From positions 1 through 59,286 of IMG/VR virus record IMGVR_UViG_3300045994_000112: a stretch of 59,286 nt of DNA, one strand, 5' to 3'. The stretch's first letter is position 1. Each line of letters begins with the position of its first letter. Shown piece by piece: positions 29,455-44,907 of this stretch. Origin of the DNA: a virus (Duplodnaviria > Caudoviricetes). The notes under the pieces are model-generated. The model worked only from the letters and a program-made list of their open reading frames with translations, was not told the origin of the DNA and ran no database searches. Made by a program: the position numbers and the translations under genes.

Positions 29455-29569
29455 CAGGATCACTTTAATTGGCGGCTGCTCTACCGACTGAGCTACTCCC
29501 GATTGCTCGGAAGGAGGGATTCGAACCCTCGACAGGCTGCTTGGGTTTATTAAATGCTGGACTGATCCT
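29455..29569 (-). ncRNA. CAGCAA-helix RNA with permuted tRNA-like domain (YrlA-like)
   Basis: AGGATCA/TGATCCT helix; T arm, then acceptor stem capped by GCAA, then D arm GCTCAGTCGGTAGAGC. Confidence 0.85.
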
Positions 29570-29574
29570 AAAAC

Positions 29575-29651
29575 TGGTAGCCTCACTCTGACTCGAACAG
29601 AGGACCTATGCGTTATCAACACATTGCTCTAACCAACTGAGCTATGAGGCT
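29575..29651 (-). tRNA. tRNA-Ile(GAT)
   Basis: Cloverleaf, CCA. Confidence 0.95.
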
Positions 29652-29658
29652 ATCTAAC

Positions 29659-29734
29659 TGGTTGCAGGACTTGGATTTGAACCAAGGATGGCGAAGGCTT
29701 ATGAGACCCTGCTGGTGACCGGACCCTTCCTGCT
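29659..29734 (-). tRNA. tRNA-Met(CAT), initiator-like and atypical
   Basis: 1:72 mismatch; reduced D arm. Confidence 0.75.
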
Positions 29735-29747
29735 ATAAAACTAAAAT

Positions 29748-29820
29748 TGGTTGCGAACCACAGAATCGAACTGTCCCTACGGGTTATGAGCCCGTTGTGC
29801 TACCATCACACTCGGCCGCG
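29748..29820 (-). tRNA. tRNA-fMet(CAT)
   Basis: C1:A72 mismatch; GGG/CCC anticodon stem. Confidence 0.85.
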
Positions 29821-29823
29821 AAA

Positions 29824-30000
29824 TTGTTTTAAGGCTGACGTCTTCTACTGTGTACAGGAATCGAACCTGCCCCTCCGGACCTGCCGGTGTCAGCGCCTTG
29901 CGGACTTACACATCAATATCCGAAAGAGCGCGGTAACGCCGAGACGGATAAAGGAAAATTACAGACCTACTGACGATTACCGTCATCAGCCTTAAAACAA
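29824..30000 (-). ncRNA. long-stem RNA enclosing a tRNA-like domain
   Basis: TTGTTTTAAGGCTGATG/CGTCAGCCTTAAAACAA; inner CAGGTTCGATTCCTG T arm. Confidence 0.7.
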
Positions 30001-30161
30001 CTGTCTTATAAAAGTTCACTAAGATATAGGCCGATGCGTACTGGCATACGCAGACCGTTCGCCCTGCCAGGGACCGTAGTAGTTGCCGCTCATACTATGC
30101 GCGGCACTGGCTCCGTCTAAGATCACTTTTATAAAACAACTATCAAACTATTTATACTAAC

Positions 30162-30262
30162 TGGCATGCCAGGGAAGGATTCCAACCTCACCTCCGTTGC
30201 GCTGCGGTGCTCTGGCTCGGTGTCGTACGATCGATATAACACCTTTCTTAAGCTACCTGACA
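30162..30262 (-). ncRNA. tRNA-like RNA with hairpin inserted in D loop
   Basis: TGTCAGG/CCTGGCA acceptor, T arm, CCA. Confidence 0.5.
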
Positions 30263-30796
30263 TATAAGGTTTACGTTCGCGTCATGTGCAGCGGAATCTC
30301 CACTGCGACAATGTTCCTGCAATATCCGAGAAAGGCGGATAATTTATCGGGTTTCCCAGCAGTCACAATGCATGACATTGTAGCTTTTCTCTCTTGGCCG
30401 CTACTCGAACGTAAATTGGTGGAAGTGGCGGGAATCGAACCCTGCATCGCCCCTAGGAGGCAGCCCCAGCTTGGCCCATTAGTGAGAACACTTAACCCGT
30501 CTACGTAGGACGGTGCGAGCATCACTGCCCAGTGCAGATTCTGCAGAATCTGCAGAATCTAAAGTATTCTCGCTGGTGGACCATACGGGAATCGAACCCG
30601 CATTATTTCCATTACACCCCATATTGAAGTACACTGCTACTGTAACCTCATATAGTTACTTCCTACTTTACAGCATTAAGATCTAGTCGAGGATGAACTA
30701 CAACAACCGACGTCAACCAACAATGTACTTCAATATGGAGTATAGATTTATAATTTTGCACTTCCTGCTGATAATCGTCAGTGCGAACCGCTGCTC

Positions 30797-30871
30797 TGGT
30801 ACTCCATAGGAGAGTTGAACTCCTCTTTCCGGCGTGAAAGGCCAGCGTCCTAACCGATAGACGAATGAAGC
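30797..30871 (-). tRNA. tRNA-Glu(TTC)
   Basis: Cloverleaf, CCA. Confidence 0.9.
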
Positions 30872-30974
30872 AAAAATATGTGGACCTAGTTTTCTGTTAT
30901 ATGGCCCATCGAACATTGTGACTTGAAGTCCTGCTTGACATTGTAGTGCAGGGAACTGTGTCGTCTTCAAATTC

Positions 30975-31196
30975 TTACTTAGAACTTGGTGTTATTACAC
31001 CAAAAATATGTGGCGTCCCATCAGCTACTTCCACTTTAATGTGGGATGGCTTATGCCAATTAAACCATGGAATTTCTTGTGTTGCGTTAGCAAGTGTTAA
31101 AAGATCAGTGATCTTCCATACTAACGCCATCGAATCGTCTGTTTCAAACGACTTGTAGTATTTGCCTTGTACGTAGACTTCGTATAATTGTGCCAT
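30975..31196 (-). CDS. hypothetical protein
   Basis: AGGAG SD; TAAATA upstream. Confidence 0.6.
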   Translation of the reverse strand: MAQLYEVYVQGKYYKSFETDDSMALVWKITDLLTLANATQEIPWFNWHKPSHIKVEVADGTPHIFGVITPSSK

Positions 31197-31265
31197 ATAA
31201 CTCCTGTTATTGTTATACTGTATTTACACAGAAAAACAAGATCGCTATATGCTACGATAAAATGA

Positions 31266-31646
31266 TTAACGTTTCAGGCCTCTTGCTTCTCTACCACTGC
31301 CTTTGTTCTTAGCGACAAACGTATCTGTCTGACTGTGGCAGTTAGGGCAAAGTAAGCGTAAGTTAGCAGGCAAATCGTGCCCTGCATTGCCATCTATATG
31401 GTCCAACTGTAATGCTAACTCTTTTCCATTGTGATTTCCATCGTTCCCACACAACGCACATTTATATCCTGCTACGTGCTTAACGCAACGGTGCAAAGTT
31501 CTGCGGTTAGTGACTTCACCTTTGTAAAACTTAGGCAAAGTAATAGTATCAAATTGATGCTGCGCTTGGCAAGCATTGTTACAATACTTATTGGAGTGAT
31601 TTTTCTTTTCGGAATTTTCGGTTCCGCAATTTAGACATTTGAACAT
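31266..31646 (-). CDS. HNH homing endonuclease
   Basis: CALC, LQLDHIDGN, NLRLLCPNCHSQT. Confidence 0.9.
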   Translation of the reverse strand: MFKCLNCGTENSEKKNHSNKYCNNACQAQHQFDTITLPKFYKGEVTNRRTLHRCVKHVAGYKCALCGNDGNHNGKELALQLDHIDGNAGHDLPANLRLLCPNCHSQTDTFVAKNKGSGREARGLKR

Positions 31647-31693
31647 AGTAGACCTCTGTAGTATTTATACATCGCTCTACTATTTAAATTAAT

Positions 31694-31769
31694 TGGTGGA
31701 GGTGACAGGACTCGAACCCGCTACCTACTGGTTGCAAACCAGTCGCTCTCCCAGCTGAGCTACACCCCC
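31694..31769 (-). tRNA. tRNA-Ala(TGC)
   Basis: G3:U70, CCA. Confidence 0.95.
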
Positions 31770-31823
31770 ACAGGTGTAAGTTACATTTTATTTATGCATT
31801 TGCTCATGCATAAAATTTTTATT

Positions 31824-31907
31824 TGGTGCCCCGGGGGAGACTCGAACTCCCACGCCTCTCGGCACTGGTTTCTAAGACCAGCGTGTCTACCATTCCACCA
31901 CCAGGGC
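31824..31907 (-). tRNA. tRNA-Leu(TAG)
   Basis: Long variable arm, CCA. Confidence 0.95.
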
Positions 31908-31930
31908 TAAATTTCTTGTTTTTGTTTTTG

Positions 31931-32155
31931 TTACTTGTGTATCTGCTGCATGTCTGTCGCGCCCCAAAAATCATCATCGGCTATCAACGGTGAAGGCTCT
32001 GTGGCATCAAACCTGTCTTTAAATAACTCGTCTCCGAACGCTTCTAGCAACTCTGCAGGAACGGTCTCGAAGTCCATTTCCTCCATAGAGACAGAGTCAG
32101 CAAAATCTTGCTGCATGTCGTCTAATAGTTTTTGCTGTTTTTCGTTGTTTCGCAT
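31931..32155 (-). CDS. small acidic protein
   Basis: MRNNEKQ start just after TATAAATA. Confidence 0.6.
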   Translation of the reverse strand: MRNNEKQQKLLDDMQQDFADSVSMEEMDFETVPAELLEAFGDELFKDRFDATEPSPLIADDDFWGATDMQQIHK

Positions 32156-32174
32156 AAAAGTATTTATATGTTGT

Positions 32175-32253
32175 TGGCGCACCGTAGGGGATTCGAACCC
32201 CTGATCTCTACCGTGACAGGGTAGCGCATTAAGCCGGACTATGCTAACGGTGC
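32175..32253 (-). tRNA. tRNA-Asp(GTC)
   Basis: Cloverleaf, CCA. Confidence 0.9.
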
Positions 32254-32333
32254 AAAATTGGTGTGTATGCTCCCCGTCGGTGAATTTCTTCGCTGACCCG
32301 GTGCCCTCGCCGTTACATACTCTTAGGCAAATT

Positions 32334-32417
32334 TGGTGGAGAAGGATGGATTCGAACCATCGCGCGGTTAAGAACGGATTTACAGTCCGTCGGTATCGGC
32401 CACTCACCCACTTCTCC
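32334..32417 (-). tRNA. tRNA-Tyr(GTA)
   Basis: Cloverleaf, CCA. Confidence 0.9.
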
Positions 32418-32558
32418 ATAACTGAATTTGTTTATCGTTTATAGTATCCAAGCTGTAAACTGATGCATTACTGCACTGCCACACGCAACGGTTCGAAGGA
32501 CTGTGTCTTGGTCGACTAACCCTTCCGGCGGTATCCGTGTGCTCACATAAACAAAACT

Positions 32559-32694
32559 TGGTGTAGTAATTGGGATTCGAACCCAACTGGTTTGCCATTT
32601 TACGACATAGTAATTACTCCATATCGCTGTATGCCCCTTGGGTGATCAATTCCTACTCACACACAGGCACAAACTTGTCGACCAAACTTACCAC
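32559..32694 (-). ncRNA. tRNA-shell RNA with internal permuted CAGC-helix
   Basis: GTGGTAA/TTACTAC-ACCA acceptor, T arm; inner GTGCCTG...GGGCAT-A-CAGCGA. Confidence 0.55.
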
Positions 32695-32700
32695 AAAAAC

Positions 32701-32774
32701 TGGAGGCCAGGGATGGAATTGAACCACCCTAAACGGACTTGCGATCCGCTACATAAACGATCTGACACCTGGCC
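32701..32774 (-). tRNA. tRNA-Cys(GCA)
   Basis: U73, C33 variant, CCA. Confidence 0.8.
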
Positions 32775-32840
32775 ATAAAACTAAGTAACTGGACGGTCGC
32801 TCTCTGACGGTTTCGCTCGTCGGATACAGTTACTAAAACT

Positions 32841-32916
32841 TGGAACGCTCATGGAGAATCGAACTCCATTTGACGCGGGTTTGCAATCCGCCGCCTATCC
32901 AACTGGCTCTGAGCGC
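32841..32916 (-). tRNA. tRNA-Cys(GCA)
   Basis: U73, CCA. Confidence 0.85.
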
Positions 32917-32926
32917 ATAAAAACTT

Positions 32927-32952
32927 TGGTCGGAGTACAAAGATTCGAACCT
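32927..32952 (-). pseudogene. tRNA 3' fragment (Pro-like)
   Basis: GGTTCGAATCTTTGTACTCCGACCA with no 5' half. Confidence 0.5.
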
Positions 32953-32965
32953 TATACACATAAAT

Positions 32966-33044
32966 TGGTCTCGGCGGCAGGATTCGAACCTGCGACATCC
33001 TGCTCCCAAAGCAGGCGGAGTGAACCGGGCTATCCTACGCCGAG
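32966..33044 (-). tRNA. tRNA-Pro(TGG)
   Basis: Cloverleaf, CCA. Confidence 0.9.
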
Positions 33045-33638
33045 TATTTCTGCAATACGCTGTTCTATACGCTCTTTTGAGTCGATGCGGTAAACAGTGT
33101 ACCCTAAACTATTTAGTGCTGCATCGCGTTCTCGATCTTTATCGGAATCTTTATGCCATTGCGCACCATCTATCTCAATAATAACATTACCTATAACAAA
33201 ATCTGGAAAATACTTTCCTATTCGTTTCTGGTGTTCAAATTCGATACCTAACTTAGTTAAGTACTCATACGCAACCTTTTCAGGGTACGTCATTTTATTT
33301 CTATTTCCCGCAAGTCGCCTATTAGGATGTGTCTCGGGATGATCTATGTGTAATTGCTTCCTCCATTCGGATTTAGCTTTACGCATATCATCAGTCCATA
33401 TTGTGTTGGACGGCTTGCCCATCTTCACTGCTGACAATGCGGCTGCGTTATTTGCCACTCTACTATCAGTAGCTTTATTCAAACCTTTGTTCCACGATGG
33501 AACACCTTTTGTATGAGAGACATAGTTTCTATCTGGATTGCTTGGGCACAGCCTTTCGTGATTACGTAGTGAGTTCAAATTTTTGCACTCTTTTCCGCAA
33601 TACTTGCAATTCAAATTTATTACTTCGGTTATTCTCAT
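33030..33638 (-). CDS. DUF559/Vsr-like endonuclease with zinc finger
   Basis: CKYCGKEC..HERLC; YFPDF..IIEIDG.QWH..D.ERD..L..LGY. Confidence 0.85.
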   Translation of the reverse strand: MRITEVINLNCKYCGKECKNLNSLRNHERLCPSNPDRNYVSHTKGVPSWNKGLNKATDSRVANNAAALSAVKMGKPSNTIWTDDMRKAKSEWRKQLHIDHPETHPNRRLAGNRNKMTYPEKVAYEYLTKLGIEFEHQKRIGKYFPDFVIGNVIIEIDGAQWHKDSDKDRERDAALNSLGYTVYRIDSKERIEQRIAEILGVG

Positions 33639-33652
33639 ATATTAAAATACAA

Positions 33653-33704
33653 CAGGATTCGCTTTGTTTTACATATGAAAGTATAAAATTGCTGAAAGAA
33701 TCCT
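33653..33704 (-). ncRNA. minimal CAGCAA-helix RNA
   Basis: AGGATTC-TTT-CAGCAA...GAATCCTG. Confidence 0.7.
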
Positions 33705-33709
33705 AAAAC

Positions 33710-33783
33710 TGGCGGGCCGACAAGAACTCGAATCTTGACTGACGGTTTTGGAGACCGTAGTGCTGCCATTACACTATCAACCC
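33710..33783 (-). tRNA. tRNA-Trp(CCA)
   Basis: Cloverleaf, CCA. Confidence 0.9.
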
Positions 33784-33796
33784 ATATTACTATTTA

Positions 33797-33871
33797 TGGT
33801 GCATCGACTTGGAATTGAACCAAGACTCAACCGATTATGAGTCGGACGCTTTACCATTAAGCTATCGACGC
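33797..33871 (-). tRNA. tRNA-CAT (Ile2 or elongator Met)
   Basis: Cloverleaf, paired 1:72. Confidence 0.85.
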
Positions 33872-33997
33872 ATAAACCATATAGAAGTGCATTAGTTTCC
33901 TAGCTTTCGGTAGACATGCCTGTCCTTTCGGGTAGCCCCTGCGTCCAGTTGCTAGGTACCCCAACCGTAAATACACTTCTATATGGCCACTGCAAAG

Positions 33998-34072
33998 TGG
34001 TAGGACTGGAGAGAATCGAACTCTCATAGACCGGTTAAAAGCCGGATATTCTGCCATTGAATTACAATCCCA
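33998..34072 (-). tRNA. tRNA-Lys(TTT)
   Basis: Cloverleaf, CCA. Confidence 0.85.
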
Positions 34073-34075
34073 TAT

Positions 34076-34151
34076 TGGTCCATCGCCTCGGAATCGAACC
34101 GAGTATCCTCCGGGTAAGAGCCGGTTGCTTCGCCACTAAAGCTTGCAATGG
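34076..34151 (-). tRNA. tRNA-Lys(CTT)
   Basis: Cloverleaf, CCA. Confidence 0.85.
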
Positions 34152-34521
34152 ATAGTACGTATTAAAATTATCTTTTACGTGCTATCCAGGACCATACATG
34201 GGATCTAGGATAACACTATATTTTCGCGGAGTCCCGTTTCATATAGTACCTTCTTTCATTAAAATTTAAACTAACACAAAATTGGGGGCGTCTGTTAGTG
34301 GCGTCTAACATCTCTCTGGTTACTGACCGAGCGTATTTCATTATACTAAGCTACCCATAACTGGTGCAGAACCATACGGTTTTTATTCGGCCCAAGGTAC
34401 GACGCTTGAGGCAAACTGCAAATTGGCGTCGGCGTTTGTGAGTAGTGCGGAGTCATTTCGCACGATAGCTACAAGGCTTTACCCGAAGGCAGTCGCCGTC
34501 TTTTACTCTACCGACATAACT

Positions 34522-34592
34522 TGGTGCACCTAAGGAGAATCAAACTCCTCTACGTTCGGCTTCAAATCCGACTCGCAATATCAATCTAGCGC
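34522..34592 (-). pseudogene. degenerate tRNA-like RNA
   Basis: T arm and CCA present; D arm reduced; 8-nt anticodon loop. Confidence 0.45.
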
Positions 34593-34597
34593 ATAAC

Positions 34598-34671
34598 TGG
34601 AGCGGGGTAGGAGAATCGAACTCCTCGCTTTAGCTTGGAAGGCTAAGGTATTACCACTATACGAACCCCGC
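34598..34671 (-). tRNA. tRNA-Gly(TCC)
   Basis: Cloverleaf, CCA. Confidence 0.9.
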
Positions 34672-34678
34672 ATTTAAA

Positions 34679-34856
34679 TTGTTTTAAGGCTGACGTTTGT
34701 GCTTGCGTACAGGATTCGAACCTGCCCATCCGGGTTTAAAGCCCAGTATGCTATCCACTACATCAACGTAATCTCCTTACCAACCATACTGCAATACTTA
34801 TGGACAGGAGTCAAACTTCAGACTGCTTCAAATTGCAGTTATCAGCCTTAAAACAA
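34679..34856 (-). ncRNA. long-stem CTGCAA RNA enclosing tRNA-like domain (TTA anticodon)
   Basis: Same terminal stem as 29824-30000; GGCTGAT-AA-CTGCAA; CTGGG-CT-TTA-AA-CCCGG. Confidence 0.7.
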
Positions 34857-35043
34857 CTAACTAAAATCATTACCAATAGCACACGGAATCGAACCGTAAA
34901 GTCTGTATTACTGACTGCGACCACGCCAAGCTCATGCATAAACCTTTATGCTATCTTGCTGTTACTGCCTGGGATTCCGAGCCCCAATGCGCCGAAGCCA
35001 GTCCCGTGAATGACTCAGTAACAACGGATAATGAAAACTAACA

Positions 35044-36193
35044 AATATGACCTGCCGCTACGTTTGGACTCTTACCACAGTTTTTCTCGAGGGTACAAGC
35101 CCCGACGCTGTTTATGGCCTTTTCAGGAACATCACTGCAAAGAGCACCGCGGAAGGATGATGCCCTACTGTTTACTTTTCGGTTAATTACTCCGACTAAT
35201 TAGATGGGAATACGCGGCGCCTACTAGGAACTCAATGTTCCGTTCGACTTCTGTCCCCGGCAGCATCACCGCCGACACAATTTTTCATACCCTACTGGAC
35301 CGACTTTGCTCATCGTTTGTCAATCGCGTCTGCTTGAACTACCAATGCACATTTGATTGAAGACCGCGGCGAACCCACGGCTCGGCACCCATCTACTATT
35401 GAAAAATGGTATCTTAGTATACTATTTCTTTGCCCATCGTCGTTTTGCTGACTCGGACATTCTTTTTATTGTTTCCTCTGATCTGGGCTTGCATTTGCGG
35501 CCCTTCATCGCTTCGGAAACTTTCCTCTTTTGTTCTTCAGATTTTGGTTTCTTAGCACCTCGACGCACTGCTTCACGCAGGGCCTCGGGGTAATTCTCCA
35601 ACATTCTTTTCGACTGTTTTGCTTTATGCTCTTCTGATCTTGGTTTTTTAGGAATACCTAAATCATTTACATATCGCCAACCACAGCCGCCGCCTAAAAC
35701 TATGTTATACACATCAGTTCTTTGCAAGAACTCTGCGTTAACATAATGCCTTTCAGCTTCACGCATTGAGGCTTCGTCTTCGAAGTATTCCAAAATCGTT
35801 TTCGAAAAATTCTCTTTACCAGATTTTGCTATTGCTTGTCTGATTATTTTTCCACTGCCCATATAACCATCATTTAAGTTCTTGGTTTTATGGACGCCGA
35901 CATAAATCATTCCGTTAGTAGTGTTCTTGATCTCGTACAAATAAAAATGCATATAGCCTCCTACTTTATTTATACAAAATGTGTCGCCATCTACTATCTT
36001 ACTAACCTGTGTCTTAGTATTAGTCCCAGAGTATATTCACATGCACAGAGGACTGGGCTCCATGTGCTGCTACATGATTTGCAGGCCTGTTACAAAAGGT
36101 TCTCTAATGTCAGGTTCCTTTATCCGCTTATCCTAGTCCCGCTGGTGTCCGAAGGCCGTGCGCTAACCAAGATAAGTTTCAGCTAATCATATA
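35044..36193 (-). ncRNA. probable ROOL-like large RNA interrupted by an endonuclease gene
   Basis: About 560 nt net; ATATGAT/GTCATAT end pairing; TAGCGCA, AGTAGATGG and TAACCGAAAA motifs match ROOL as recalled from memory. Confidence 0.55.
35422..35952 (-). CDS. GIY-YIG (Seg-like) homing endonuclease with NUMOD3
   Basis: YLYEIKN..NGMIYVGVH..DGYMGSG; SEEHKAK repeats; own TATAAATA. Confidence 0.9.
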   Translation of the reverse strand: MHFYLYEIKNTTNGMIYVGVHKTKNLNDGYMGSGKIIRQAIAKSGKENFSKTILEYFEDEASMREAERHYVNAEFLQRTDVYNIVLGGGCGWRYVNDLGIPKKPRSEEHKAKQSKRMLENYPEALREAVRRGAKKPKSEEQKRKVSEAMKGRKCKPRSEETIKRMSESAKRRWAKK

Positions 36194-36540
36194 TAAACTC
36201 ACTCGCATCTGCCTTTTTGAGCCGCGTGTTCTATCCCTTAGCTTCGGCCTAGGACCAATCAGGATGTGCACATGTACACTAGAGCTTATATATGATCACA
36301 ATCACTAAAACGCTTGCCGGCGTAAACGACCCCGGGGCGCTGATCGACTGTAAATCATATTCAAACACATTATTTCCCCCGGGGCGTACCCCAGAGTTAA
36401 ATCATCCCTGATACAAACTAATGTACTTGAATATGACCCCTTATGCTTCGCAGCATCTTCACGATGTAGCGGACTGTTAAAGCGTATTGCCACAAACTTG
36501 GGCTCAGCACTGTCATCAGCAAAGGGATATCATAACCATT

Positions 36541-36556
36541 AAATTTTTAAAGAACA
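36541..36556 (-). promoter_or_regulatory. rrn-type boxA antiterminator
   Basis: TGTTCTTTAAAAATTT; a second copy at 36667-36683. Confidence 0.65.
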
Positions 36557-36721
36557 AGTATTGTCTGTTAGGTAAGTTAGATGGGAGATTTCCCTTACCC
36601 TGTTACTCTGTATCAGTCTACCCTAAAGTAGCATCAACCTGCGGCTCCCCGTGCACGAACAGACAAAAACTTTTTAACGAACATCTAGCAGCTAACTCGA
36701 TCATTTACTGCTTAAGTACCT

Positions 36722-37248: not shown

Positions 37249-37625
37249 GCTTTGCCTTGTAATCTGCAACCGCTGCCTTGATAGCATCTTCTGCAAGAAT
37301 AGAGCAATGGATCTTTACTGGTGGCAGAGCGAGTTCTTCTGCGATTGTACTGTTTTTCAGGGACGCGGCTTCGTCCAGTGTTTTTCCTTTGACCCATTCT
37401 GTCACTAATGATGACGATGCAATGGCTGATCCGCAACCGTAAGTCTTAAATCGTGCATCAGTGATGATGCCGTCTACCACTTTGATTTGTAGCTTCATTA
37501 CATCGTCAACAACCGCAAGCTGGGGCACCAACCATCCCGGTCCCAACTTGCGCATCTCCTTTACCGAACGACCCTACGTTCCTCGGGTTTTCATAATGGT
37601 CAATCACAGCATTTGAATAAGCCAT
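37232..37625 (-). pseudogene. iscU: IscU with 7-nt frame-disrupting insertion
   Basis: MAYSNAVIDHYENPRNVG..GAPACG in one frame, DVMKLQIKV..YGCGSAIASSS..LPPVKIHCS in another. Confidence 0.85.
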
Positions 37626-38208
37626 AATAACCTCCTTTTAAAAATCTTATTACGTGCATAGGTTGATAGCTATCCCACTTAGCACGATTGTCTGCACCCT
37701 TGAGGAACTGAATATTTTTCTTGCTCCCCAATACTTCAGCCGGTAGTCCTAATTCATATCCCTGTTTGTAGGGGACGACATGGTCTACTTGCCAATCTGT
37801 TTTTCTTTTACCGCAAGTGGGGACATATTCTCCTGCTTGCTTCATTGCCTTAATCGTTCTATAAGTTGCCTTGCGTACCATTCCCTTATACACTGCTAAC
37901 TCACTGTTAGCTGGTTTTTTAGGACGTCGATTATTAACTGCTCCGTCTCTATTGGGGTTATTGGTGAGCCACTTTTGACTCTGCTTTTCGTTTGGCAAAC
38001 CCTTGTTCCATCCGTGCCCTTTTTTAAGGCCGTCATGGTTTTGTTTCTCTTTTTGCTCTGCTGTTAGCTTAACCCCTTTGTTCCAAGCTTTATTACCTGG
38101 ACGATTAATAGGGTTTTTGCATGGCGCAGAGCAATAAAGCACATACCTGGGTTTAGTTTCAAACAGGTTGCCGCAAAACTTACAAACAGACGATATTCCG
38201 TATTTCAT
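37600..38208 (-). CDS. HNH-like homing endonuclease
   Basis: CKFCG..YCS..C, WNKG repeats, VDHVVP...N. Confidence 0.75.
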   Translation of the reverse strand: MKYGISSVCKFCGNLFETKPRYVLYCSAPCKNPINRPGNKAWNKGVKLTAEQKEKQNHDGLKKGHGWNKGLPNEKQSQKWLTNNPNRDGAVNNRRPKKPANSELAVYKGMVRKATYRTIKAMKQAGEYVPTCGKRKTDWQVDHVVPYKQGYELGLPAEVLGSKKNIQFLKGADNRAKWDSYQPMHVIRFLKGGYYGLFKCCD

Positions 38209-38501
38209 ACAGTATTTATGTTGGTGCGCCCGTTTGCGAGTTTTTCCTGGCTCTTGTGCATCAAAGCACCGTACTTCAATGTGAACATGAATGTGTCGTC
38301 TGTTGCTACAGTGAACACAGCCCATGCTTTGTTAACTTTTCCCCAGCGGTAGTCTCGTTCACGTTCGTAATTGAACGTGTAAAAATCCGCATCTAATTCT
38401 GTCTCCATTGCCCACATCAAGATATCGTCTACGAATTCTTGGCGGGCATACTTGTGCTCATCCCTGTGAAGGTGGACGGGCATTTCGATTCTAACTTTCA
38501 T
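38205..38501 (-). CDS. hypothetical protein
   Basis: AAGGAG SD; ATGA overlap. Confidence 0.65.
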   Translation of the reverse strand: MKVRIEMPVHLHRDEHKYARQEFVDDILMWAMETELDADFYTFNYERERDYRWGKVNKAWAVFTVATDDTFMFTLKYGALMHKSQEKLANGRTNINTV

Positions 38502-38571
38502 TTTCGCTCCTTTGTTTTTCAACAATGGGAAGCGGTGAAGTGTGGTAAATAAAACATTTTTGTTTCCTTAT

Positions 38572-38704
38572 TGGTGGAGCATTCGGGAGTTGAACCCGTC
38601 TCTTGGAACCTTTTGTCACCCTTGCGGGTCTAGCTTGATGATAAATCTCTGCTTGGCTTCTATCAACGTTCAGGATAGATTTGAGCCGACCTACACTATG
38701 CCCC
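38572..38704 (-). ncRNA. Ala-identity tRNA-like RNA without normal anticodon arm
   Basis: GGGGCAT/ATGCTCC-A-CCA (G3:U70); GACGGGTTCAACTCCC. Confidence 0.6.
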
Positions 38705-38768
38705 GTATTGGTGGTCGGCCCACAGAGTCATGACCTCTGAATGCGCCCGGGCAATGCCGACCGTAAAA

Positions 38769-38855
38769 TGGCGGAGAATAATGGAATCGAACCATCACCG
38801 CTTTCGCAGTGGGGACGCTTTCCAAGCGCCGTAACCCCCAGGGTACCTACTCTCC
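38769..38855 (-). tRNA. tRNA-Ser(GGA)
   Basis: Long variable arm; atypical D arm. Confidence 0.8.
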
Positions 38856-38959
38856 TAAATTTAATAAGCAGACTGAAATAATATGCTGGGTTCTTGCAAC
38901 CCTTCTTCTGGCTTAGTGTTCCTCATATCATGCCCGTTTCAGTCAGGCTCTGCTTAACT

Positions 38960-39049
38960 TGGCGGGGCGTAATAGAATCGAACTATCACCGGGTACTAGC
39001 CAGTGGGCGAGTTTTCAAGGCTCGTTAACTTCCAAAGTTCCTACACCCC
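38960..39049 (-). tRNA. tRNA-Ser(TGA)
   Basis: Long variable arm; atypical D arm. Confidence 0.8.
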
Positions 39050-39063
39050 ATATTCATATTTAT

Positions 39064-39150
39064 TGGCGGATCATAATAGAATCGAACTATCACCGCTTTC
39101 GCAGTGGGTCGGTATTCGAAGCCGATTAACGCCCAGCGTACCTATGATCC
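39064..39150 (-). tRNA. tRNA-Ser(CGA)
   Basis: Long variable arm; atypical D arm. Confidence 0.8.
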
Positions 39151-40346
39151 ATAATCTTTATCTTTTTAAATCCTGCATTAGTTGGATTCCCTGCTGGCTT
39201 TGCATTTTCTGGACATAAGCTGCAAGCAGGAATTTCATATAGCAAGTCATCAATAAACTTTTTAATTTTGGCAATCTCCCAATTTGGATTGCCGGGCTCG
39301 TAGCTACTAGCTACCGCCATTTGTTCTTTTGTTGCATCAACTGCAAACTGTGCACTAAATTCGCCAAATACTGCAACTGGGCCGCATTTCCAAAGTCTAC
39401 CTCTGGCAAATTGATATGCTTGCCACTCAACTGAAGTAAAGCAGCAATTTGAATGTGCTACTCTTCCGTTGCCAGTTTGGAATTTAACAGTTTGCCCCAC
39501 TTGCGTAAGCATAGTGTCATAAAACTTATATGAATCCATTACTAGCAATGATACGCCATTAGCATCAGTGATTTTATATCCATCCGAAATTGGTTTTGGT
39601 GGTGCAAAATTAAACAATGTAATACATTCGTCTTGAATGTATTGCGGTAAATTTTTAAACTCATCAGGTCTGTTACATGCTGGCCAATCGTTGGCTTTGA
39701 TGGAGTTGTATTTTTCAATCCATGCTGTGTTGCTAACTGCTCCCCAGTTTTCATCGAATGAGAATAACTCCTTGCATTCATCTTGAATGGCTGATGGCAA
39801 ACTCTTAAAGTCAGACCTAAAATTACATGTTGGCCAATCTGCTAGTTTAATTTGTTTGTATTTTATGTCCCACCGACTACCTATTACTTCTGGTGTCAGG
39901 GATGCATGTACATCAGCAGCAAAATTTGCGCTGCTCTTTACATACGGTGCAATTAAAAATTGATCTATTCCAGTCTGCGCATTTTGCATTACTTCATTGC
40001 TGTGTGCAGACATCCTAACTGACAATCTTGGGTTTTTAAGTCGCTCGTACAATTCTGGCCAACGCGAGAACTGTGTACCATTTGTTAATATTTCTACCTT
40101 TGATGTGGGCCATAGACCCATAACGCCGTCTACCCACAACAAAAAATCTGGATTAAGCATAGGCTCACCACCCAAAATTACTATGTGTTTAATGTCGACA
40201 ATGGCCGCCCACTTGGTATACTCGGCTGAATAATCAGCCCAGCGTTCGTGGCCCTTAAACGTAAAATTGTTAAACCTATTACAGTCAGTGCAATTCAAAT
40301 TACATACGTTTGTGATGTAAAAATCTGCAAACTCGATTTCAATCAT
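39126..40346 (-). CDS. radical SAM protein with two WP modules
   Basis: CNLNCTDC, LGGEP, TNG, C-terminal CSLC. Confidence 0.85.
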   Translation of the reverse strand: MIEIEFADFYITNVCNLNCTDCNRFNNFTFKGHERWADYSAEYTKWAAIVDIKHIVILGGEPMLNPDFLLWVDGVMGLWPTSKVEILTNGTQFSRWPELYERLKNPRLSVRMSAHSNEVMQNAQTGIDQFLIAPYVKSSANFAADVHASLTPEVIGSRWDIKYKQIKLADWPTCNFRSDFKSLPSAIQDECKELFSFDENWGAVSNTAWIEKYNSIKANDWPACNRPDEFKNLPQYIQDECITLFNFAPPKPISDGYKITDANGVSLLVMDSYKFYDTMLTQVGQTVKFQTGNGRVAHSNCCFTSVEWQAYQFARGRLWKCGPVAVFGEFSAQFAVDATKEQMAVASSYEPGNPNWEIAKIKKFIDDLLYEIPACSLCPENAKPAGNPTNAGFKKIKIMDHRYAGR

Positions 40347-40991
40347 TTATTGATGTTTATATGTTTCTATATATTTTACCACATTGGTATCAAACCATTG
40401 TGGGTTTGCATGTAAGTAATCAATTGTTTTACTTAATGTCCACGGTGTTCTATAAGGGCGATTCGACATTAGTGCTTCCGCAACGTCACATGCCGCCAAT
40501 ATACGTATATTATGCGGAATTTGTTCCGCTGTCAATTTAAGTGGATAACCCGACCCATCTAATCGCTCATGATGCATATATGCAAAATCTACTAATGGCC
40601 ACGGTGATACTAAATTAGATAAAATAATTTTACCAATCGGCACATGCGTTTCCGCAATCATCCGCTCACCAGGAGTAAGTGGTCCAGCCTTAGAAATAAC
40701 ACTGTGGTGGACACCTATTTTGCCTATATCATGTATCAACGATCCAATTGTGACACCAATCATGTCATGGTATGATAACCCCATCTTGGATGCAACATGC
40801 GTTGCAATTTCTTCTGCAGAACACAAGTGATCACCTGTATGCGAGTCGTATGCTTGCATCATTGTGACTAGAGTTTCAAAGTGAGAACATATTGTTTTCA
40901 CTGTCATCTCATCAGGAGAATTACCCATGCTAGCCATGTAGTGCTGCAAAAACTCTTTACTTGCAAACATGGCTTTAGTATTAGGGTGCAT
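40347..40991 (-). CDS. HD-GYP phosphodiesterase
   Basis: HDIGKIG, HHERLDGSGYP, CDVAEAL.SNRPYR. Confidence 0.9.
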   Translation of the reverse strand: MHPNTKAMFASKEFLQHYMASMGNSPDEMTVKTICSHFETLVTMMQAYDSHTGDHLCSAEEIATHVASKMGLSYHDMIGVTIGSLIHDIGKIGVHHSVISKAGPLTPGERMIAETHVPIGKIILSNLVSPWPLVDFAYMHHERLDGSGYPLKLTAEQIPHNIRILAACDVAEALMSNRPYRTPWTLSKTIDYLHANPQWFDTNVVKYIETYKHQ

Positions 40992-41001
40992 ACTATATTT
41001 A

Positions 41002-41075
41002 TGGTATCCCGTAGCAGAATTGAACTGCTGTTTTAACCATGTCAAAGTTACGCTCTACCATTGAGCTAACGGGAC
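41002..41075 (-). tRNA. tRNA-Val(GAC)
   Basis: Cloverleaf, CCA. Confidence 0.85.
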
Positions 41076-41081
41076 AAATTT

Positions 41082-41158
41082 TGGCATACCGGGAAGGATT
41101 CGAACCTTCATCACGCAATTTTGGAGACTGCTGTTCTGCCAATTGGAACTACCGATAT
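41082..41158 (-). tRNA. tRNA-Trp(CCA)
   Basis: Cloverleaf, CCA. Confidence 0.9.
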
Positions 41159-41164
41159 ATAATT

Positions 41165-41252
41165 TGGCGGGTGAGAGAGGACTTGAACCTCCACGCCTTT
41201 TTCAAAACGTCAGTTTAGCAAACTGATGCGGCTACCATTTCGCCACTCACCC
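41165..41252 (-). tRNA. tRNA-Ser(GCT)
   Basis: Long variable arm, CCA. Confidence 0.85.
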
Positions 41253-41356
41253 ATTAATCTTACTGTGAGGGCTAACCTCTCTAGCGCAAGTAGCACGTTC
41301 CGGTTTACGCCGGTTCGGTTGAGCAGGGTCCAGGTTGCTTGGGACTACTTATACTC

Positions 41357-41431
41357 TGGAGCCTTCAGCTAGAATCAAACTAGCGATTACTGATTACGAA
41401 ACAGTCGTGTTATCACTAACACTATAAAGGC
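41357..41431 (-). tRNA. tRNA-Thr(CGT)
   Basis: Cloverleaf, CCA. Confidence 0.8.
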
Positions 41432-41600
41432 ATATTAAATTAGAAGGTTGGATTTACGGTTTCGACACCGCTGCACCAACTTGTAAGACCGTAAGGGGGT
41501 CTTTCGGTAATATTCGGCCCACGTCGTCCGTCCGATATTTACCTATACACTGATATACGACCTGTCTACCAGTTGCTGTTCTACCAGCTGCTTCTAAACT

Positions 41601-41677
41601 TGGTGCACCCTCTCGGATTCGAACCGAGAACATTTAGTTTCTAAGACTAACCTGACTACCAATTGCAGCAAGGGTGC
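41601..41677 (-). tRNA. tRNA-Leu(TAG), short variable loop
   Basis: 77 nt; A73. Confidence 0.85.
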
Positions 41678-41777
41678 ATATTCTGTGCTAGTTTACTCCT
41701 TACTAGCAAGTCCTATAAGTCGACTCTGCATTTAAGCCTGCAGAGCTTACTATGCCTATAGCGTAGGCTTAAAATAA

Positions 41778-42077
41778 TCAACACTCCGTAGCCGGGATTC
41801 TGTTCTATGCTAACATTAATCTTTGCCACAACCCGCACCTATAAGCAAAAGGTTCCCAAGTGCTGTTTGTGTTGCACACTATATCACGGTAGTGTTAACG
41901 ATAGCATTTTGTGGTGGAGTTTGCCAGGGGCTTTCACCTGGTTGCGGCCTGGAGCGCGAAGGCCCAGTTTCGTCCTATATGTTACGTGTTCAAACCCCAT
42001 TACAAAATACTATCTCCTACTCGCCCTTTGCGTGTGTCCCGAACTTCCTGACTTGCGCCCGTTAGCTCGAATGTTGA
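41778..42077 (-). ncRNA. rnpB: RNase P RNA
   Basis: P1 TCAACATTCG/CGGAGTGTTGA; P2 GCTAAC/GTTAGC; AGGAAGTTCGGGA with AACAGAATCCCGGCTA (P4); GGTGAAA, GGCAAACTCCACC, GCAA. Confidence 0.85.
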
Positions 42078-42081
42078 AATT

Positions 42082-42202
42082 TGGTGCAGCCCCGTGGATT
42101 CGAACCACGACCTCGTCCTTGTATAATGGAATGATTGTAGTGCTGTATTGTATCCTTGTCAGGATCGCTTTCTACGCGAGCTAACCATTACTCTAAGGCT
42201 GC
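42082..42202 (-). ncRNA. CCA-ended tRNA shell with CAGCA-helix replacing the anticodon loop
   Basis: GCAGCCT/GGGCTGC-ACCA, D and T arms; inner GATCCT-GACA-AGGAT-ACAATA-CAGCA. Confidence 0.75.
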
Positions 42203-42209
42203 ATTAAAT

Positions 42210-42284
42210 TGGCCGGTCCTAGAGGAATCGAACCTCTACCCACTGTTTCGAAGACAATGATGATATCCATTTCACTAAGGACCG
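42210..42284 (-). tRNA. tRNA-Arg(TCG)
   Basis: Cloverleaf, CCA. Confidence 0.9.
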
Positions 42285-42289
42285 ATATT

Positions 42290-42365
42290 TGGTGGGTCGC
42301 ACGGGAGTCGAACCCGCCTGGTACTGATTAAGAGTCAGCTGCATCTGCCGCTTTGCTAACAACCC
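42290..42365 (-). tRNA. tRNA-Lys(CTT)
   Basis: Cloverleaf, CCA. Confidence 0.9.
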
Positions 42366-42373
42366 AAATTGTG

Positions 42374-42450
42374 TGGTGCCCCTGGTCAGATTCGAACTGA
42401 CATCCAAAACCTTTTAAGGATTCCCGCACTACCAATTAGCGTACAGGGGC
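42374..42450 (-). tRNA. tRNA-Leu(TAA), short variable loop
   Basis: 77 nt; A73. Confidence 0.85.
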
Positions 42451-42559
42451 GAAAATAATTTAGCTAGAACAATCGCCAGGATATGTTGACACATACCCCA
42501 GCAGGGATTCGAACCCCATACACGCCTGATGTTCTATATTTTACGTGAGCCAAAAATAA

Positions 42560-42663
42560 CAGGATGTGGCGTCTATAGACCGGGACTCGAACCCTTGACG
42601 CACCCCCAGCGGGCCGGCCTCGCGAAGTATGGAGCGAGTTTTGAGTTTTGCTGCAATCATCCT
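42560..42663 (-). ncRNA. CAGCAA-helix RNA with T-arm module
   Basis: AGGATG-ATTG-CAGCAA...GGGTTCGAGTCCC...CATCCTG. Confidence 0.7.
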
Positions 42664-42667
42664 AAAC

Positions 42668-42743
42668 TGGTACATCGGACTGGCTTCGAACCAGTGACAC
42701 CTAACTTTTCAGGCTAGTGCTCTACCAACTGAGCTACCGATGC
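42668..42743 (-). tRNA. tRNA-Phe(GAA)
   Basis: Cloverleaf, CCA. Confidence 0.9.
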
Positions 42744-42752
42744 ATAATATAA

Positions 42753-42814
42753 CAGGATCAACTTTTTAGTTTTCGAACAAAGAAAATTTTATTAAGTTTT
42801 GCTGAACTGATCCT
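42753..42814 (-). ncRNA. minimal CAGCAA-helix RNA
   Basis: AGGATCAG-TT-CAGCAA...TTGATCCTG. Confidence 0.7.
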
Positions 42815-42819
42815 AAAAC

Positions 42820-42897
42820 TGGTACCCTAGGTCGGATTCGAACCGACACGATTCTCCTTTTGAGAGAGACGCCTCATACCAATTGGGCTACTAGGGC
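42820..42897 (-). tRNA. tRNA-Leu(CAA), short variable loop
   Basis: 78 nt; A73. Confidence 0.85.
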
Positions 42898-42906
42898 ATA
42901 ATAACT

Positions 42907-42982
42907 TGGTGCAACCTACAGGGATCGAACCTGTTTCATCGGCTTTTCAGACCGCTGCAATGACCACATTTGCTAAAGTTGC
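42907..42982 (-). tRNA. tRNA-Phe(GAA)
   Basis: Cloverleaf, CCA. Confidence 0.85.
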
Positions 42983-42993
42983 ATAATAAACTT

Positions 42994-43068
42994 AGGGGTG
43001 ACCGATGGGAGTTGAACCCATACTACCAGAGTCACAGTCTAGGTTGCTACCGCTACAACACGGCCACA
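42994..43068 (-). tRNA. tRNA-His(GTG)
   Basis: C73; ends CCT, so CCA not encoded. Confidence 0.85.
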
Positions 43069-43086
43069 CCTAAGTTCACTAAAATT

Positions 43087-43161
43087 TGGCAGCCCGTGTA
43101 GGAATCGAACCTACGCTTACTGAGTCAGAGTCAGTTATTCTTCCATTAAACTAACAGGCAA
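43087..43161 (-). tRNA. tRNA-Gln(CTG)
   Basis: Cloverleaf, CCA. Confidence 0.85.
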
Positions 43162-43166
43162 CAAAT

Positions 43167-43253
43167 TGGCTGAGGAAGTACGACTTGAACGTACACGCCC
43201 TTTACAGACACTGATTTCAAAGACCAGCGTGGCTACCATTTCACCATTCCCCA
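43167..43253 (-). tRNA. tRNA-Gln(TTG) with long variable arm
   Basis: CTGGT-CT-TTG-AA-ATCAG; variable arm TGTCTGTAAAGGGCG. Confidence 0.75.
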
Positions 43254-43294
43254 ATAAACTATAAATAATATACATACATCATTAAGGTACGTAT

Positions 43295-43594
43295 ATGAAA
43301 AACTTTCTAGCTGCACTTTTACTCGTTCCCACTTTATCATTCGCTACGCTTGAGCATTTCAAGAAGGACGTAATCTGCGAAGACGAGGACAAATTAATGG
43401 CCGAATTAACTGGTCCTGAGTATCAGGAAGAAGTTGTCATTATCGGCAAAGGATCAGTAAACGTGTTAATCATTACGCTCAACAAAGAAACAGGATCTTA
43501 CTCTGTATTAGAAGTTAACGATGGTAAATTGTGCGGGCTAAACGTAGGCGATAATTTTACCATTAATTGGAAGAAAATGCCTACACAAAAATAA
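43295..43594 (+). CDS. small secreted protein
   Basis: Signal peptide MKNFLAALLLVPTLSFA; two Cys; TATAAATA upstream. Confidence 0.75.
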   Translation: MKNFLAALLLVPTLSFATLEHFKKDVICEDEDKLMAELTGPEYQEEVVIIGKGSVNVLIITLNKETGSYSVLEVNDGKLCGLNVGDNFTINWKKMPTQK

Positions 43595-43658
43595 CAGGAA
43601 GAGGTTGTCGACTAAGACACCAAAAGTTTAAGTCTGTATTGTTTGCAGAACTCTTCCT
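43595..43658 (-). ncRNA. minimal CTGCAA-helix RNA
   Basis: AGGAAGAG-TT-CTGCAA...CTCTTCCTG. Confidence 0.7.
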
Positions 43659-43663
43659 AAAAC

Positions 43664-43918
43664 TGGCTTCGTCAACAAGACTCGAACTTGTGATGCGGGG
43701 TTAAAATCGCGTATGCTGGGTCCCCGTGTGTTTCCCAAAGTTACCCTCGTATCCCCTCAATGCCTTATCTCACTCTTCATGCATTTCAACCTGTTCCGCA
43801 CTTCCCGGACTCACAGTGTTTGGTTTTAAAGCCTACGCGATTGTTATCTACTTTGCACTACTAGCTGCCTTATCTCACCTACTCAATACTACTCTACCTT
43901 CCTCTACACTATAACGAA
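43664..43918 (-). ncRNA. tRNA shell with about 200-nt insertion
   Basis: TTCGTTA/TGACGAA-GCCA acceptor; CAAGTTCGAGTCTTG T arm. Confidence 0.6.
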
Positions 43919-43926
43919 ATAAAACT

Positions 43927-44001
43927 TGGTGCTCTCTGGCAGATTTGAACTGCCTTCTGTGGACTACAAAACCACTATTCTCCCGAGTGAACTAAGAGAG
44001 C
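43927..44001 (-). tRNA. tRNA-Thr(TGT)
   Basis: Cloverleaf, CCA. Confidence 0.8.
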
Positions 44002-44010
44002 ATAATATAA

Positions 44011-44127
44011 CAGGATGCCTTAATAGACGGCGTGAAGCCGTTGCTCTGCCATTAGAGCGTACTACGCGATGTGCGTGGTGTTGGAATCGAACCAACTGAT
44101 CTAAAAGATCGTTGCTGCAAGCATCCT
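44011..44127 (-). ncRNA. CAGCAA-helix RNA with permuted tRNA-like domain (YrlA-like)
   Basis: AGGATGC/GCATCCT; T arm GTTGGTTCGATTCCAAC, capped acceptor stem, D arm GCTCTAATGGCAGAGC. Confidence 0.8.
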
Positions 44128-44132
44128 AAAAC

Positions 44133-44900: not shown

Positions 44901-44907
44901 ATAAAAT

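Follow-up and report, generated by a model that had tools for sequence, protein, structure and literature searches.

The 59,286-base virus record IMGVR_UViG_3300045994_000112, analysed here in its entirety (hereafter the window; estimated to be 17% complete), is in our judgement likely to be a fragment of a large tRNA-rich phage that carries a gene for a protein with DUF2828 and vWA-like domains, together with a family of small RNAs sharing one docking motif, which is found joined with a tRNA shape in either of two circular orders. We call this motif the handle: it consists of an A-rich lead and a helix whose 3′ strand is followed by G(UU) and whose 5′ strand is followed, at a distance of two to six bases, by CAGCA(A). 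In one order (elements A and B), the RNA ends lie in the handle and the acceptor stem is closed by a loop, as in YrlA RNAs; in the other (element C and its relatives, the C type), the ends are an acceptor stem with CCA, and the handle, closed by a short loop, is a fifth arm placed after the D arm and before the anticodon-arm position. Either form would bind one and the same protein, with the DUF2828 product as the presumed Ro60-like partner, and would display a tRNA-like surface to tRNA-recognising factors, acting as a tether, gate or decoy in a role that, by analogy, would parallel that of Y RNAs with Ro60. Y RNAs and Ro60 have been described in animals, bacteria and a small number of phages, and the origin of Y RNAs from tRNAs and the purpose of tRNA mimicry are open questions; here one docking motif is joined to a tRNA body in either circular order, in some cases both in a single genome, and one pair is an exact permutation, which makes a tRNA origin of Y-like RNAs testable.

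Elements A, B and C, as well as element D discussed below, are all located on the minus strand within an array of 56 tRNA genes called by ARAGORN, every one on the minus strand, which spans 13.4 to 46 kb; 51 of the 56 reach the Rfam tRNA threshold. The two open-ended elements are composed as follows.

29456-29569, minus strand: element A, with handle AGGATCA/TGATCCT (folding, YrlA alignment, scan)
29514-29530, minus strand: T arm of A
29496-29513, minus strand: 7-bp acceptor stem of A, capped by GCAA
29478-29493, minus strand: D arm of A
to 29448, minus strand: 3′ tail of A, GTTATATT
44012-44127, minus strand: element B, with handle AGGATGC/GCATCCT (folding, scan)
44098-44110, minus strand: hairpin of B in the anticodon-arm position
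44080-44096, minus strand: T arm of B
44061-44079, minus strand: capped acceptor stem of B, with one mismatch
44043-44058, minus strand: D arm of B
44027-44041, minus strand: extra hairpin of B
to 44004, minus strand: 3′ tail of B, GTTATATT

Both elements fold so that the handle encloses a T arm, a capped stem adjoining the T stem and, two bases further on, a D arm, with a minimum free energy z-score of -4.26 for B. A preliminary description of this DNA had placed the ends of the two RNAs (given as 29455 and 44011) in the handle helix, with the tRNA part in the order T arm, capped acceptor stem and D arm, and this is confirmed by folding, by alignment of A to the Rfam YrlA model (RF02553), and by seven relative RNAs of the same architecture, found at L003, L004, L017, L028 and L063 and twice at L016 (codes with L and G stand for loci and genomes used in comparison). 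The stems of the seven relatives are unrelated in sequence, and the arms are therefore maintained by compensation. The core of A aligns to positions 24-84 of the 114-position YrlA model, with an identical arm order, at 35.5 bits, and B scores 15.3 bits (E = 0.75), against a gathering score of 69. In the scan for permuted tRNAs, 23 of the 32 matches were discarded as junctions of neighbouring tRNAs (loops containing CCA) or as chance.

When A is compared with its counterpart at L003 (5559-5671; protein 91% identical), the handle and the internal-loop flanks are 97-100% identical and the whole T/acceptor/D core is different, while the D arm of A is 95-100% identical to D arms of ordinary tRNAs; the core thus behaves as an exchangeable cassette, and its replacement looks like a cassette exchange with tRNA genes. 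Among the loci compared, the D arm GTGTAATGGTAGCAC occurs only in the L003 permuted RNA, two C-type RNAs and one other tRNA-like RNA. An RNA library yielded a 227-nt contig that covers 43934-44160 (B and adjacent tRNAs) with three differences; it may represent carried-over DNA, and the RNA ends cannot be read from it.

The second circular order is seen in element C, identified from folding, homologues and a covariance model.

42082-42202, minus strand: element C, a 121-nt tRNA-like RNA
42196-42202 and 42086-42092, minus strand: 7-bp acceptor stem GCAGCCT/GGGCTGC
42178-42193, minus strand: D arm
42152-42165, minus strand: handle-like hairpin ATCCT-GACA-AGGAT
42141-42145, minus strand: CAGCA, six bases after the hairpin
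42116-42130, minus strand: degenerate hairpin in the anticodon position (TCC, 9-nt loop, GGA)
42093-42109, minus strand: T arm
42082-42085, minus strand: ACCA (A73 and CCA)

Element C has the 7-bp acceptor stem, D arm, T arm with a TTCGAAT loop, discriminator and CCA of a tRNA; in place of a 5-bp anticodon stem and 7-nt loop directly after position 26, it has about 45 extra bases after the D arm, followed by a 3-bp stem with a 9-nt loop. The loop-closed handle within the extra bases is not a chance occurrence: its generic pattern is found three times on both strands of the window, compared to a mean of 0.38 in 300 shuffles, and its ATCCT version once, compared to none in the shuffles. In homologues of C from G002, G003 and G004 (72-74% identity), compensatory changes preserve every stem, and the internal hairpin is likewise kept, ATCCT/AGGAT being replaced in G003 by ATTCT/AGAAT; covariance model R1 detected further C-type copies in G013 (ACTCT/AGAGT) and a second copy in G004.

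A collection-wide scan with a pattern of D loop, CAGCA and T loop yielded at least 80 loci, which were then filtered with R1; with the copies from the matches listed added to those above, 20 C-type RNAs from 14 records could be aligned (alignment A7). In A7, which was fitted to R1 so that pair counts lean towards the model structure, 97.8% of cells are paired, versus 63.3% in shuffled and 40-51% in slid alignments; all five helices covary, with both-sided changes in 23 of 25 pairs, including all six pairs of the internal hairpin. The surroundings of this hairpin are those of the handle, with an A-rich lead and CAGCA located two to six bases past the 3′ strand. Nine of the 20 rows of A7, and likewise nine of the 22 copies compared for the motif, came from the pattern that demanded CAGCA; in the 13 of these 22 not preselected for it, CAGCA is present in 9 and C[AU]GCA in 12. 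The first base of the loop is G in 17 of 22 copies by automatic parsing, and by eye four of the five exceptions are mis-picked hairpins.

The preliminary description had C end in an acceptor stem with CCA and carry a loop-closed handle in place of the anticodon. The ends stand, and the loop-closed handle is borne out by covariation across the 20 RNAs; its location had to be revised, because C has an additional small hairpin five to six bases before the T stem. Indeed, every C-type RNA has such a hairpin between CAGCA and the T arm, ending 4-6 bases 5′ of the T stem, which is the position of an anticodon arm, and all three of its model pairs covary. The handle-like hairpin is thus an added, fifth arm that follows the D arm and precedes the anticodon arm, and does not replace the anticodon. 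The loop in the anticodon position consists of 7 nt in 15 of the 20 aligned RNAs and combines U33 with R37, as a canonical anticodon-type loop does, in 11, and the anticodons include GUC, CAU, GUU, GGU, CAA, GAU and UCC. In the window copy this hairpin is degenerate (3 bp, 9-nt loop), and the window copy is therefore no decoder.

An anticodon-like stem (GUAG/CUAC) that would close the extra arm is not established: the window and G002 have it, G004 and G013 may have it, and G003 lacks it. The 95-nt matches of R1 in G006, G007 and G012 lack the handle hairpin and CAGCA and are not of the C type; at positions 1501-1595 of L065, L066 and L068 (G012, G006 and G007, respectively), we observed an odd anticodon-position hairpin with the loop CAGAUUA, separated from the D arm by about 20 additional bases. 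At the examined loci of KVP40 and Felixounavirus HY02, R1 detected no C-type RNA, and a relaxed handle scan gave no handles on the gene's strand.

These data bear on two simpler explanations of element C. It could be an ordinary tRNA gene with an intron-like insert of about 45 nt which is removed after transcription, the likeness to the handle resulting from a mobile handle element that landed in a tRNA gene. The 11 C-type RNAs with U33 and R37 in a 7-nt loop preceding the variable loop would indeed become normal tRNAs upon removal of the insert (GUC, CAU, GUU, GGU, CAA), and ARAGORN calls a tRNA-Thr inside one C-type RNA. We nevertheless find this improbable: the insert follows the D arm and precedes the anticodon-position hairpin, and thus lies outside the anticodon loop; with a length of about 45 nt, it falls far short of a group I intron, with its self-splicing core of at least 200 nt, and matches no Rfam intron family at E values up to 10; its G and CAGCA are conserved jointly with handle RNAs that are not tRNAs; the window copy and its closest relatives have degenerate loops, of 7 nt with C37, 8 nt or 9 nt; and the C-type RNAs cluster at the DUF2828 gene. 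Among the RNA-library contigs, none gives useful coverage of C and no junction lacking the insert was seen, which speaks neither for nor against its removal. Decay of a functionless tRNA pseudogene disrupted by a repeat would fit the absence of a usable anticodon loop in the window copy, as well as the lack of an ARAGORN call and of any match to the Rfam tRNA model (RF00005) at E values up to 10; compensatory changes maintaining five helices in the aligned RNAs, and tandem copies beside the DUF2828 gene, make it very improbable.

With C taken as a tRNA-shaped RNA with an internal docking arm, both forms can be read along one circle: D arm, A-rich stretch, helix strand, G, (ends or loop), helix strand, CAGCA, (anticodon-position hairpin), variable loop, T arm, and acceptor stem closed by a loop or open at the ends. 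As the preliminary description proposed, both topologies occur in one genome, and they do so in at least four (the window, G002, G004 and G013). The open-handle RNA at L016 (1836-1949) has an anticodon-position hairpin, UCCU-CUGAUAA-AGGA, and is an exact circular permutation of the C type in which the anticodon arm was kept. Such hairpins are degenerate in B, L063 and L025; in A, L003, L004, L016 (the copy at 47) and L017, the two flanking strands pair with each other instead, as in YrlA. The C-type RNAs occur as tandem copies, and a cut within the hairpins of two adjacent copies would, if the change ran in that direction, yield the permuted form. The data show the structures, their covariation and their genomic linkage to the DUF2828 gene; protein binding, RNase P processing and aminoacylation would be compatible with the structures.

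Circular permutation of tRNA-like genes has precedents in transfer-messenger RNA (tmRNA), permuted two-piece tmRNA and permuted tRNA genes. Element C resembles tmRNA in being tRNA-derived, with an acceptor stem, T arm, CCA and a large insert, and differs from it in its intact D arm and in an insert that amounts to a short hairpin of the protein-binding type; the window, moreover, lacks a tag reading frame, and ARAGORN calls no tmRNA in it. ARAGORN does call permuted tmRNA genes near the DUF2828 gene in two other phages, at L217 (1008-1301) and L093 (1749-2167).

A broader proposal, which we regard as tentative and somewhat less likely to be right than wrong, is that DUF2828 proteins may constitute a second, unrecognised Ro60-like branch, with an undescribed helix-plus-CAGCA family as their RNA partners; in many phages these partners might be complete five-armed tRNAs, with CCA, an anticodon loop and a docking arm between the D and anticodon arms, which may be chargeable or serve as bait for tRNA-directed host factors, and the YrlA-like forms might have arisen from tandem arrays by circular permutation. 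If true, permutation of tandem five-armed tRNAs would offer a concrete route from tRNA to Y-like RNA.

The handle family extends well beyond these elements and lies beside the DUF2828 gene.

20501-21913, minus strand: gene for the 470-aa protein with DUF2828 (Pfam E = 8.4e-21) and vWA-like DUF7788 (Pfam E = 2.2e-48)
21928-21964, minus strand: minimal handle hairpin AGGTTA..CAGCAA..TAACCT-G in the DUF2828 5′ leader (sequence reading)
21972-22220, minus strand: open-ended handle RNA, 249 nt, AGGATGA ATT CAGCA ... TCATCCT GTTGT (reading and scan)
22232-22396, minus strand: open-ended handle RNA, 165 nt, AGGTTAG GTT CAGCC ... CTAACCT GTTGT (reading and scan)
22408-22536, minus strand: open-ended handle RNA, 129 nt, GGGATAG GTT CTGCA ... 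CTATCCC GTTGT (sequence reading)
33654-33704, minus strand: short open-ended handle RNA, 51 nt, immediately after tRNA-Trp (script and scan)
42561-42663, minus strand: open-ended handle RNA, 103 nt, with a 6-bp handle and an internal T-loop-like hairpin, GGGTTCGAGTCCC (script)
42754-42814, minus strand: short open-ended handle RNA, 61 nt, occupying the interval from tRNA-Leu(caa) to tRNA-Phe (script and scan)
43596-43658, minus strand: short open-ended handle RNA, 63 nt, AGGAAGA ... TCTTCCT (script and scan)
45240-45298, minus strand: short open-ended handle RNA, 59 nt, immediately after tRNA-Asp (script and scan)

The 5′ frame of A and B, CCA-GTTTT-AGGATnn-nnn-CAGCA, and their 3′ frame, nnATCCT-GTTATATT, recur at seven sites in the tRNA array, as found by motif searches and a script, and the window contains at least 11 handle copies in total; three large tandem handle RNAs are located immediately upstream of the DUF2828 gene, with the minimal hairpin in its leader. 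The family is real and strand-specific: a strict scanner found 8 matches on the minus strand of the window, none on the plus strand and none in 30 shuffles, and in 42 related DUF2828 loci (614,530 bases) it found 67 matches on the gene's strand and none on the opposite strand. A scan with no 3′ constraint gave 101 candidates versus 20, with GTT coming next in 69 of the 101 and in none of the 20. Handle stems vary between copies yet stay paired (AGGATCA, AGAGTGA, TGTATAC, AGATTAG), and in distant relatives the stem sequence is free, with the helix, CAGCA and GTT retained. No Rfam family covers the handle elements. In related loci, one to three handles are typically found just 5′ of the DUF2828 start codon. 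The minimal handle with CAGCAA in the window lies just upstream of the ribosome-binding site of the DUF2828 mRNA, a layout also present in G013 and in the Synechococcus phage BUCT-ZZ01; the leader handle suggests that the DUF2828 protein controls its own mRNA. A 219-nt RNA-library contig covers 42556-42767 with one difference, and again may stem from carried-over DNA, with RNA ends that cannot be read from the contig.

Since the handle RNAs occupy the tRNA strand and directly abut the neighbouring tRNA genes, their release would come about through ordinary processing of tRNA ends. The handles might instead be processing or termination signals of the tRNA array, such as sites for a double-strand-specific RNase, with no docking of the DUF2828 protein and only incidental proximity to its gene. 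In favour of this, the CCA of a tRNA immediately precedes the handles, the following tRNA often marks where they stop, several consist of a short hairpin without evident cargo (lengths of 51-63 nt for the window and 48-65 nt for related loci), and U-rich runs come after some of them. We consider this explanation unlikely, albeit slightly less so than the intron-like one: linkage to the gene persists across proteins with identities down to about 47-55% and in BUCT-ZZ01, a minimal handle is present in the gene's own leader, and the handles enclose inserts of 50-280 nt with conserved single-stranded flanks, which a closing stem of the Y RNA kind fits better than a cleavage site does.

For the C type, the linkage to the DUF2828 gene could be assessed independently, as records with pattern-found C-type RNAs were picked without reference to proteins. 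Among the matches listed, a DUF2828 homologue is present in 7 of 10 such records, and in all four of those whose completeness is 90% or higher, against a background of 705 of 50,697 phage records (about 1.4%), including T4-like phages, FelixO1-like phages and mycobacteriophages. In G029, G031, G033 and G035, the C-type RNAs adjoin the DUF2828 gene on the gene's strand, in at least two copies each. In the cultured phage BUCT-ZZ01, with a protein 46.8% identical to that of the window, two C-type RNAs (99.2 and 55.2 bits) follow the gene, which is itself preceded by three open handle RNAs; the relaxed scan detected one of these, and the other two were recognised by eye. The C type therefore adjoins the gene in five other phage records, taking the slot that is occupied by open-ended handle RNAs in the clade of the window, and this linkage is the strongest argument that the C hairpin and the open handle serve the same partner. 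As both forms are found by the gene in BUCT-ZZ01, the cultured pair of this phage and Synechococcus elongatus PCC 7942 makes binding, processing and charging directly testable. In the same phage, ARAGORN calls a suppressor-type tRNA with anticodon CUA (L093 627-702).

The DUF2828 protein itself is probably a distant Ro60-like RNA binder. It matches phrog_850, annotated as RNA-binding protein, over the full length (E = 2.1e-140), and its mycobacteriophage relatives carry the annotation "Ro-like RNA binding protein". The C-terminal vWA domain contains the MIDAS-type DxSGS motif (DVSGSM), with a weak match to Pfam VWA_2, and was aligned by hhalign to the TROVE protein of phage CcrColossus over 183 columns, including DVSGSM (probability 73.5%, E = 3e-5). 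In a language-model search from which DUF2828/DUF7788 clusters were excluded, TROVE/vWA_Ro60 accounted for 26 of the 30 nearest atlas clusters, with scores of about 0.93, and this likeness is the one lead towards a possible ring-shaped fold. The RNAs described here would thus be candidate partners for a widespread phage protein family that is annotated only as "RNA-binding" or "Ro-like" and adjoins tRNA arrays.

Several observations weigh against a DUF2828-bound, Ro60-like system. The N-terminal DUF2828 half has no TROVE match by Pfam, PDB profile search or hhalign: Pfam gave no TROVE match for the 470-aa protein at E values up to 10, or for the whole window at E values up to 1, the PDB profile search did not return Ro60, the hhalign alignments to TROVE proteins of Bxz1 and CcrColossus are confined to the C-terminal half, and profile A3 fails to detect either of these two proteins. 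As the N-terminal half is not placed in TROVE by sequence methods, we infer the label "Ro60-like", albeit with good motivation. In the window, C is about 20 kb away from the DUF2828 gene, and the C hairpin can differ from handle stems of the same genome (in G028, AGAGTAG versus AUCCU). The YrlA Ro-binding motif, given as GNCGAAN0-1G on the 5′ strand in the available text of PMC4201824, is absent from the handles of A and B, whose 5′ strands, AGGATCAGTCCAGCA and AGGATGCTTGCAGCA, have no CGAA. Finally, binding of any of these RNAs by the DUF2828 protein is something that we infer.

Comparison with known systems shows both likenesses and differences. In YrlA with bacterial or phage Ro60 (Rsr, TROVE; RF02553), as described in the accessible part of Chen et al. 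2014 (PMC4201824), a protein-binding stem that contains a large internal loop is built from the RNA ends, and the RNA genes adjoin the protein gene, often in multiple copies; the tRNA-mimic module has the order of T arm, capped acceptor-like stem and D arm that is seen in A, B and their seven relatives. The same part reports that YrlA of M. smegmatis, with a 7-bp acceptor stem, is cleaved by RNase P and has CCA added to it. Three of four YrlA features are lacking here: the scores of A and B lie below the family threshold, CAGCA and G(UU) take the place of GNCGAAN0-1G, and the adjacent protein is DUF2828 with DUF7788 and not TROVE. Unlike YrlA, moreover, there is a second form with genuine tRNA ends. 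Differing orientation of the T and D arms relative to RNA ends is noted among Y RNAs, with Deinococcus radiodurans Yrn1 as the case in point, in the accessible part of PMC4201824; the ends of Yrn1 form the Ro-binding stem, whereas those of C form an acceptor stem with CCA, with the putative binding hairpin being internal.

Thermus phage phiLo likewise combines a vWA ring protein with two Y-like RNAs, Yrl1 and Yrl2, just upstream of the gene, although its protein is a recognisable Ro60 homologue and its RNAs carry CGAA, and a counter-defence role has been proposed (PMC12135203, as far as its available text goes). In the available portions of the YrlA and phiLo descriptions (PMC4201824, PMC12135203), the tRNA-ended form has no counterpart. 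The Bas63 protein gp130 is reported in the PhageMaP preprint to have a Ro60-like fold and to adjoin a tRNA array, with its deletion sensitising the phage to the ppl defence, and the authors guess that some of the "tRNA genes" are Y RNAs; in the available text of PMC11482910 no RNA is identified for it, and we liken it to the present protein by description. By analogy, the system described here would work like Ro60 with YrlA. Among the papers listed on DUF2828, Ro-like phage proteins and phage Y RNA, Ro60 or TROVE, no description of these RNAs was found, the supplementary phage lists of Chen et al. 2014 being outside this search.

Element D had been put forward as a probable second tRNA with a loop-closed handle.

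32559-32694, minus strand: element D, a 136-nt tRNA-like RNA with acceptor stem GTGGTAA/TTACTAC, ACCA and three internal hairpins (folding, homologue)
32570-32586, minus strand: T arm of D

The acceptor stem, T arm and ACCA of D are present, it contains ..CCCAAGGGGCATACAGCGA.., which bears a loose likeness to the hairpin of C with CAGC, and it scores 22.3 bits with R1, a value within the range of ordinary tRNAs. The sole homologue (G001, 77% identity), found in one of the five records searched, compensates pair 2:71; however, the proposed CCC..GGGG hairpin and CAGC are not conserved, reading GCT..GGGG and TAGC in the homologue with no compensation, and both D and the homologue pair GGGGCAUA with an upstream strand. 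Since the hairpin and CAGC are not conserved, the handle is unconfirmed at this site. D has, in addition, no D arm. Its membership in the C type is accordingly highly unlikely, and from its sequence D is a separate tRNA-like RNA outside the handle family. Overall, of the four sites in the preliminary description, three hold, with the anticodon detail corrected, and the handle finding is real, conserved and wider than was first described.

The remaining observations concern the tRNA array. Megablast of 16 kb against named phages yielded short tRNA matches only and no near-identical phage. Interspersed among the tRNA genes, on the same minus strand, are genes for HNH, DUF559/Vsr-like and GIY-YIG endonucleases and a radical-SAM/HD-domain gene pair (31266-31646, 33030-33638, 35422-35952 and 39126-41045). 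ARAGORN calls a suppressor-type tRNA with anticodon UUA, reading UAA, at 34699-34773 (minus strand). A purine-rich RNA of about 250 nt (43665-43916, minus strand), which immediately precedes a handle RNA, has an acceptor-like strand and a D-arm-like GTGT at its 5′ end, a T arm followed by TGACGAA-G-CCA at its 3′ end, and two copies of GTGAGATAAGGCA; it has no Rfam match and no ARAGORN tmRNA call, and related contigs are present in two RNA libraries, with the highest depths within the stretch compared.

Two tandem tRNA-like genes at 44826-44985 (minus strand), called neither by ARAGORN nor by Rfam, have an acceptor stem, a T arm, GCCA, an anticodon-type loop CUGUUAA (GUU) and an aberrant D region. 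Extra T-arm-bearing elements were also found outside the annotated tRNAs on the minus strand, at 29660-29750, 30574-30684, 34800-34900 and 32917-32965; the element at about 29660-29745 has a CAU anticodon-type loop and ACCA, and one of the unannotated elements is a solitary T arm with a 3′ acceptor strand, located downstream of tRNA-Pro.

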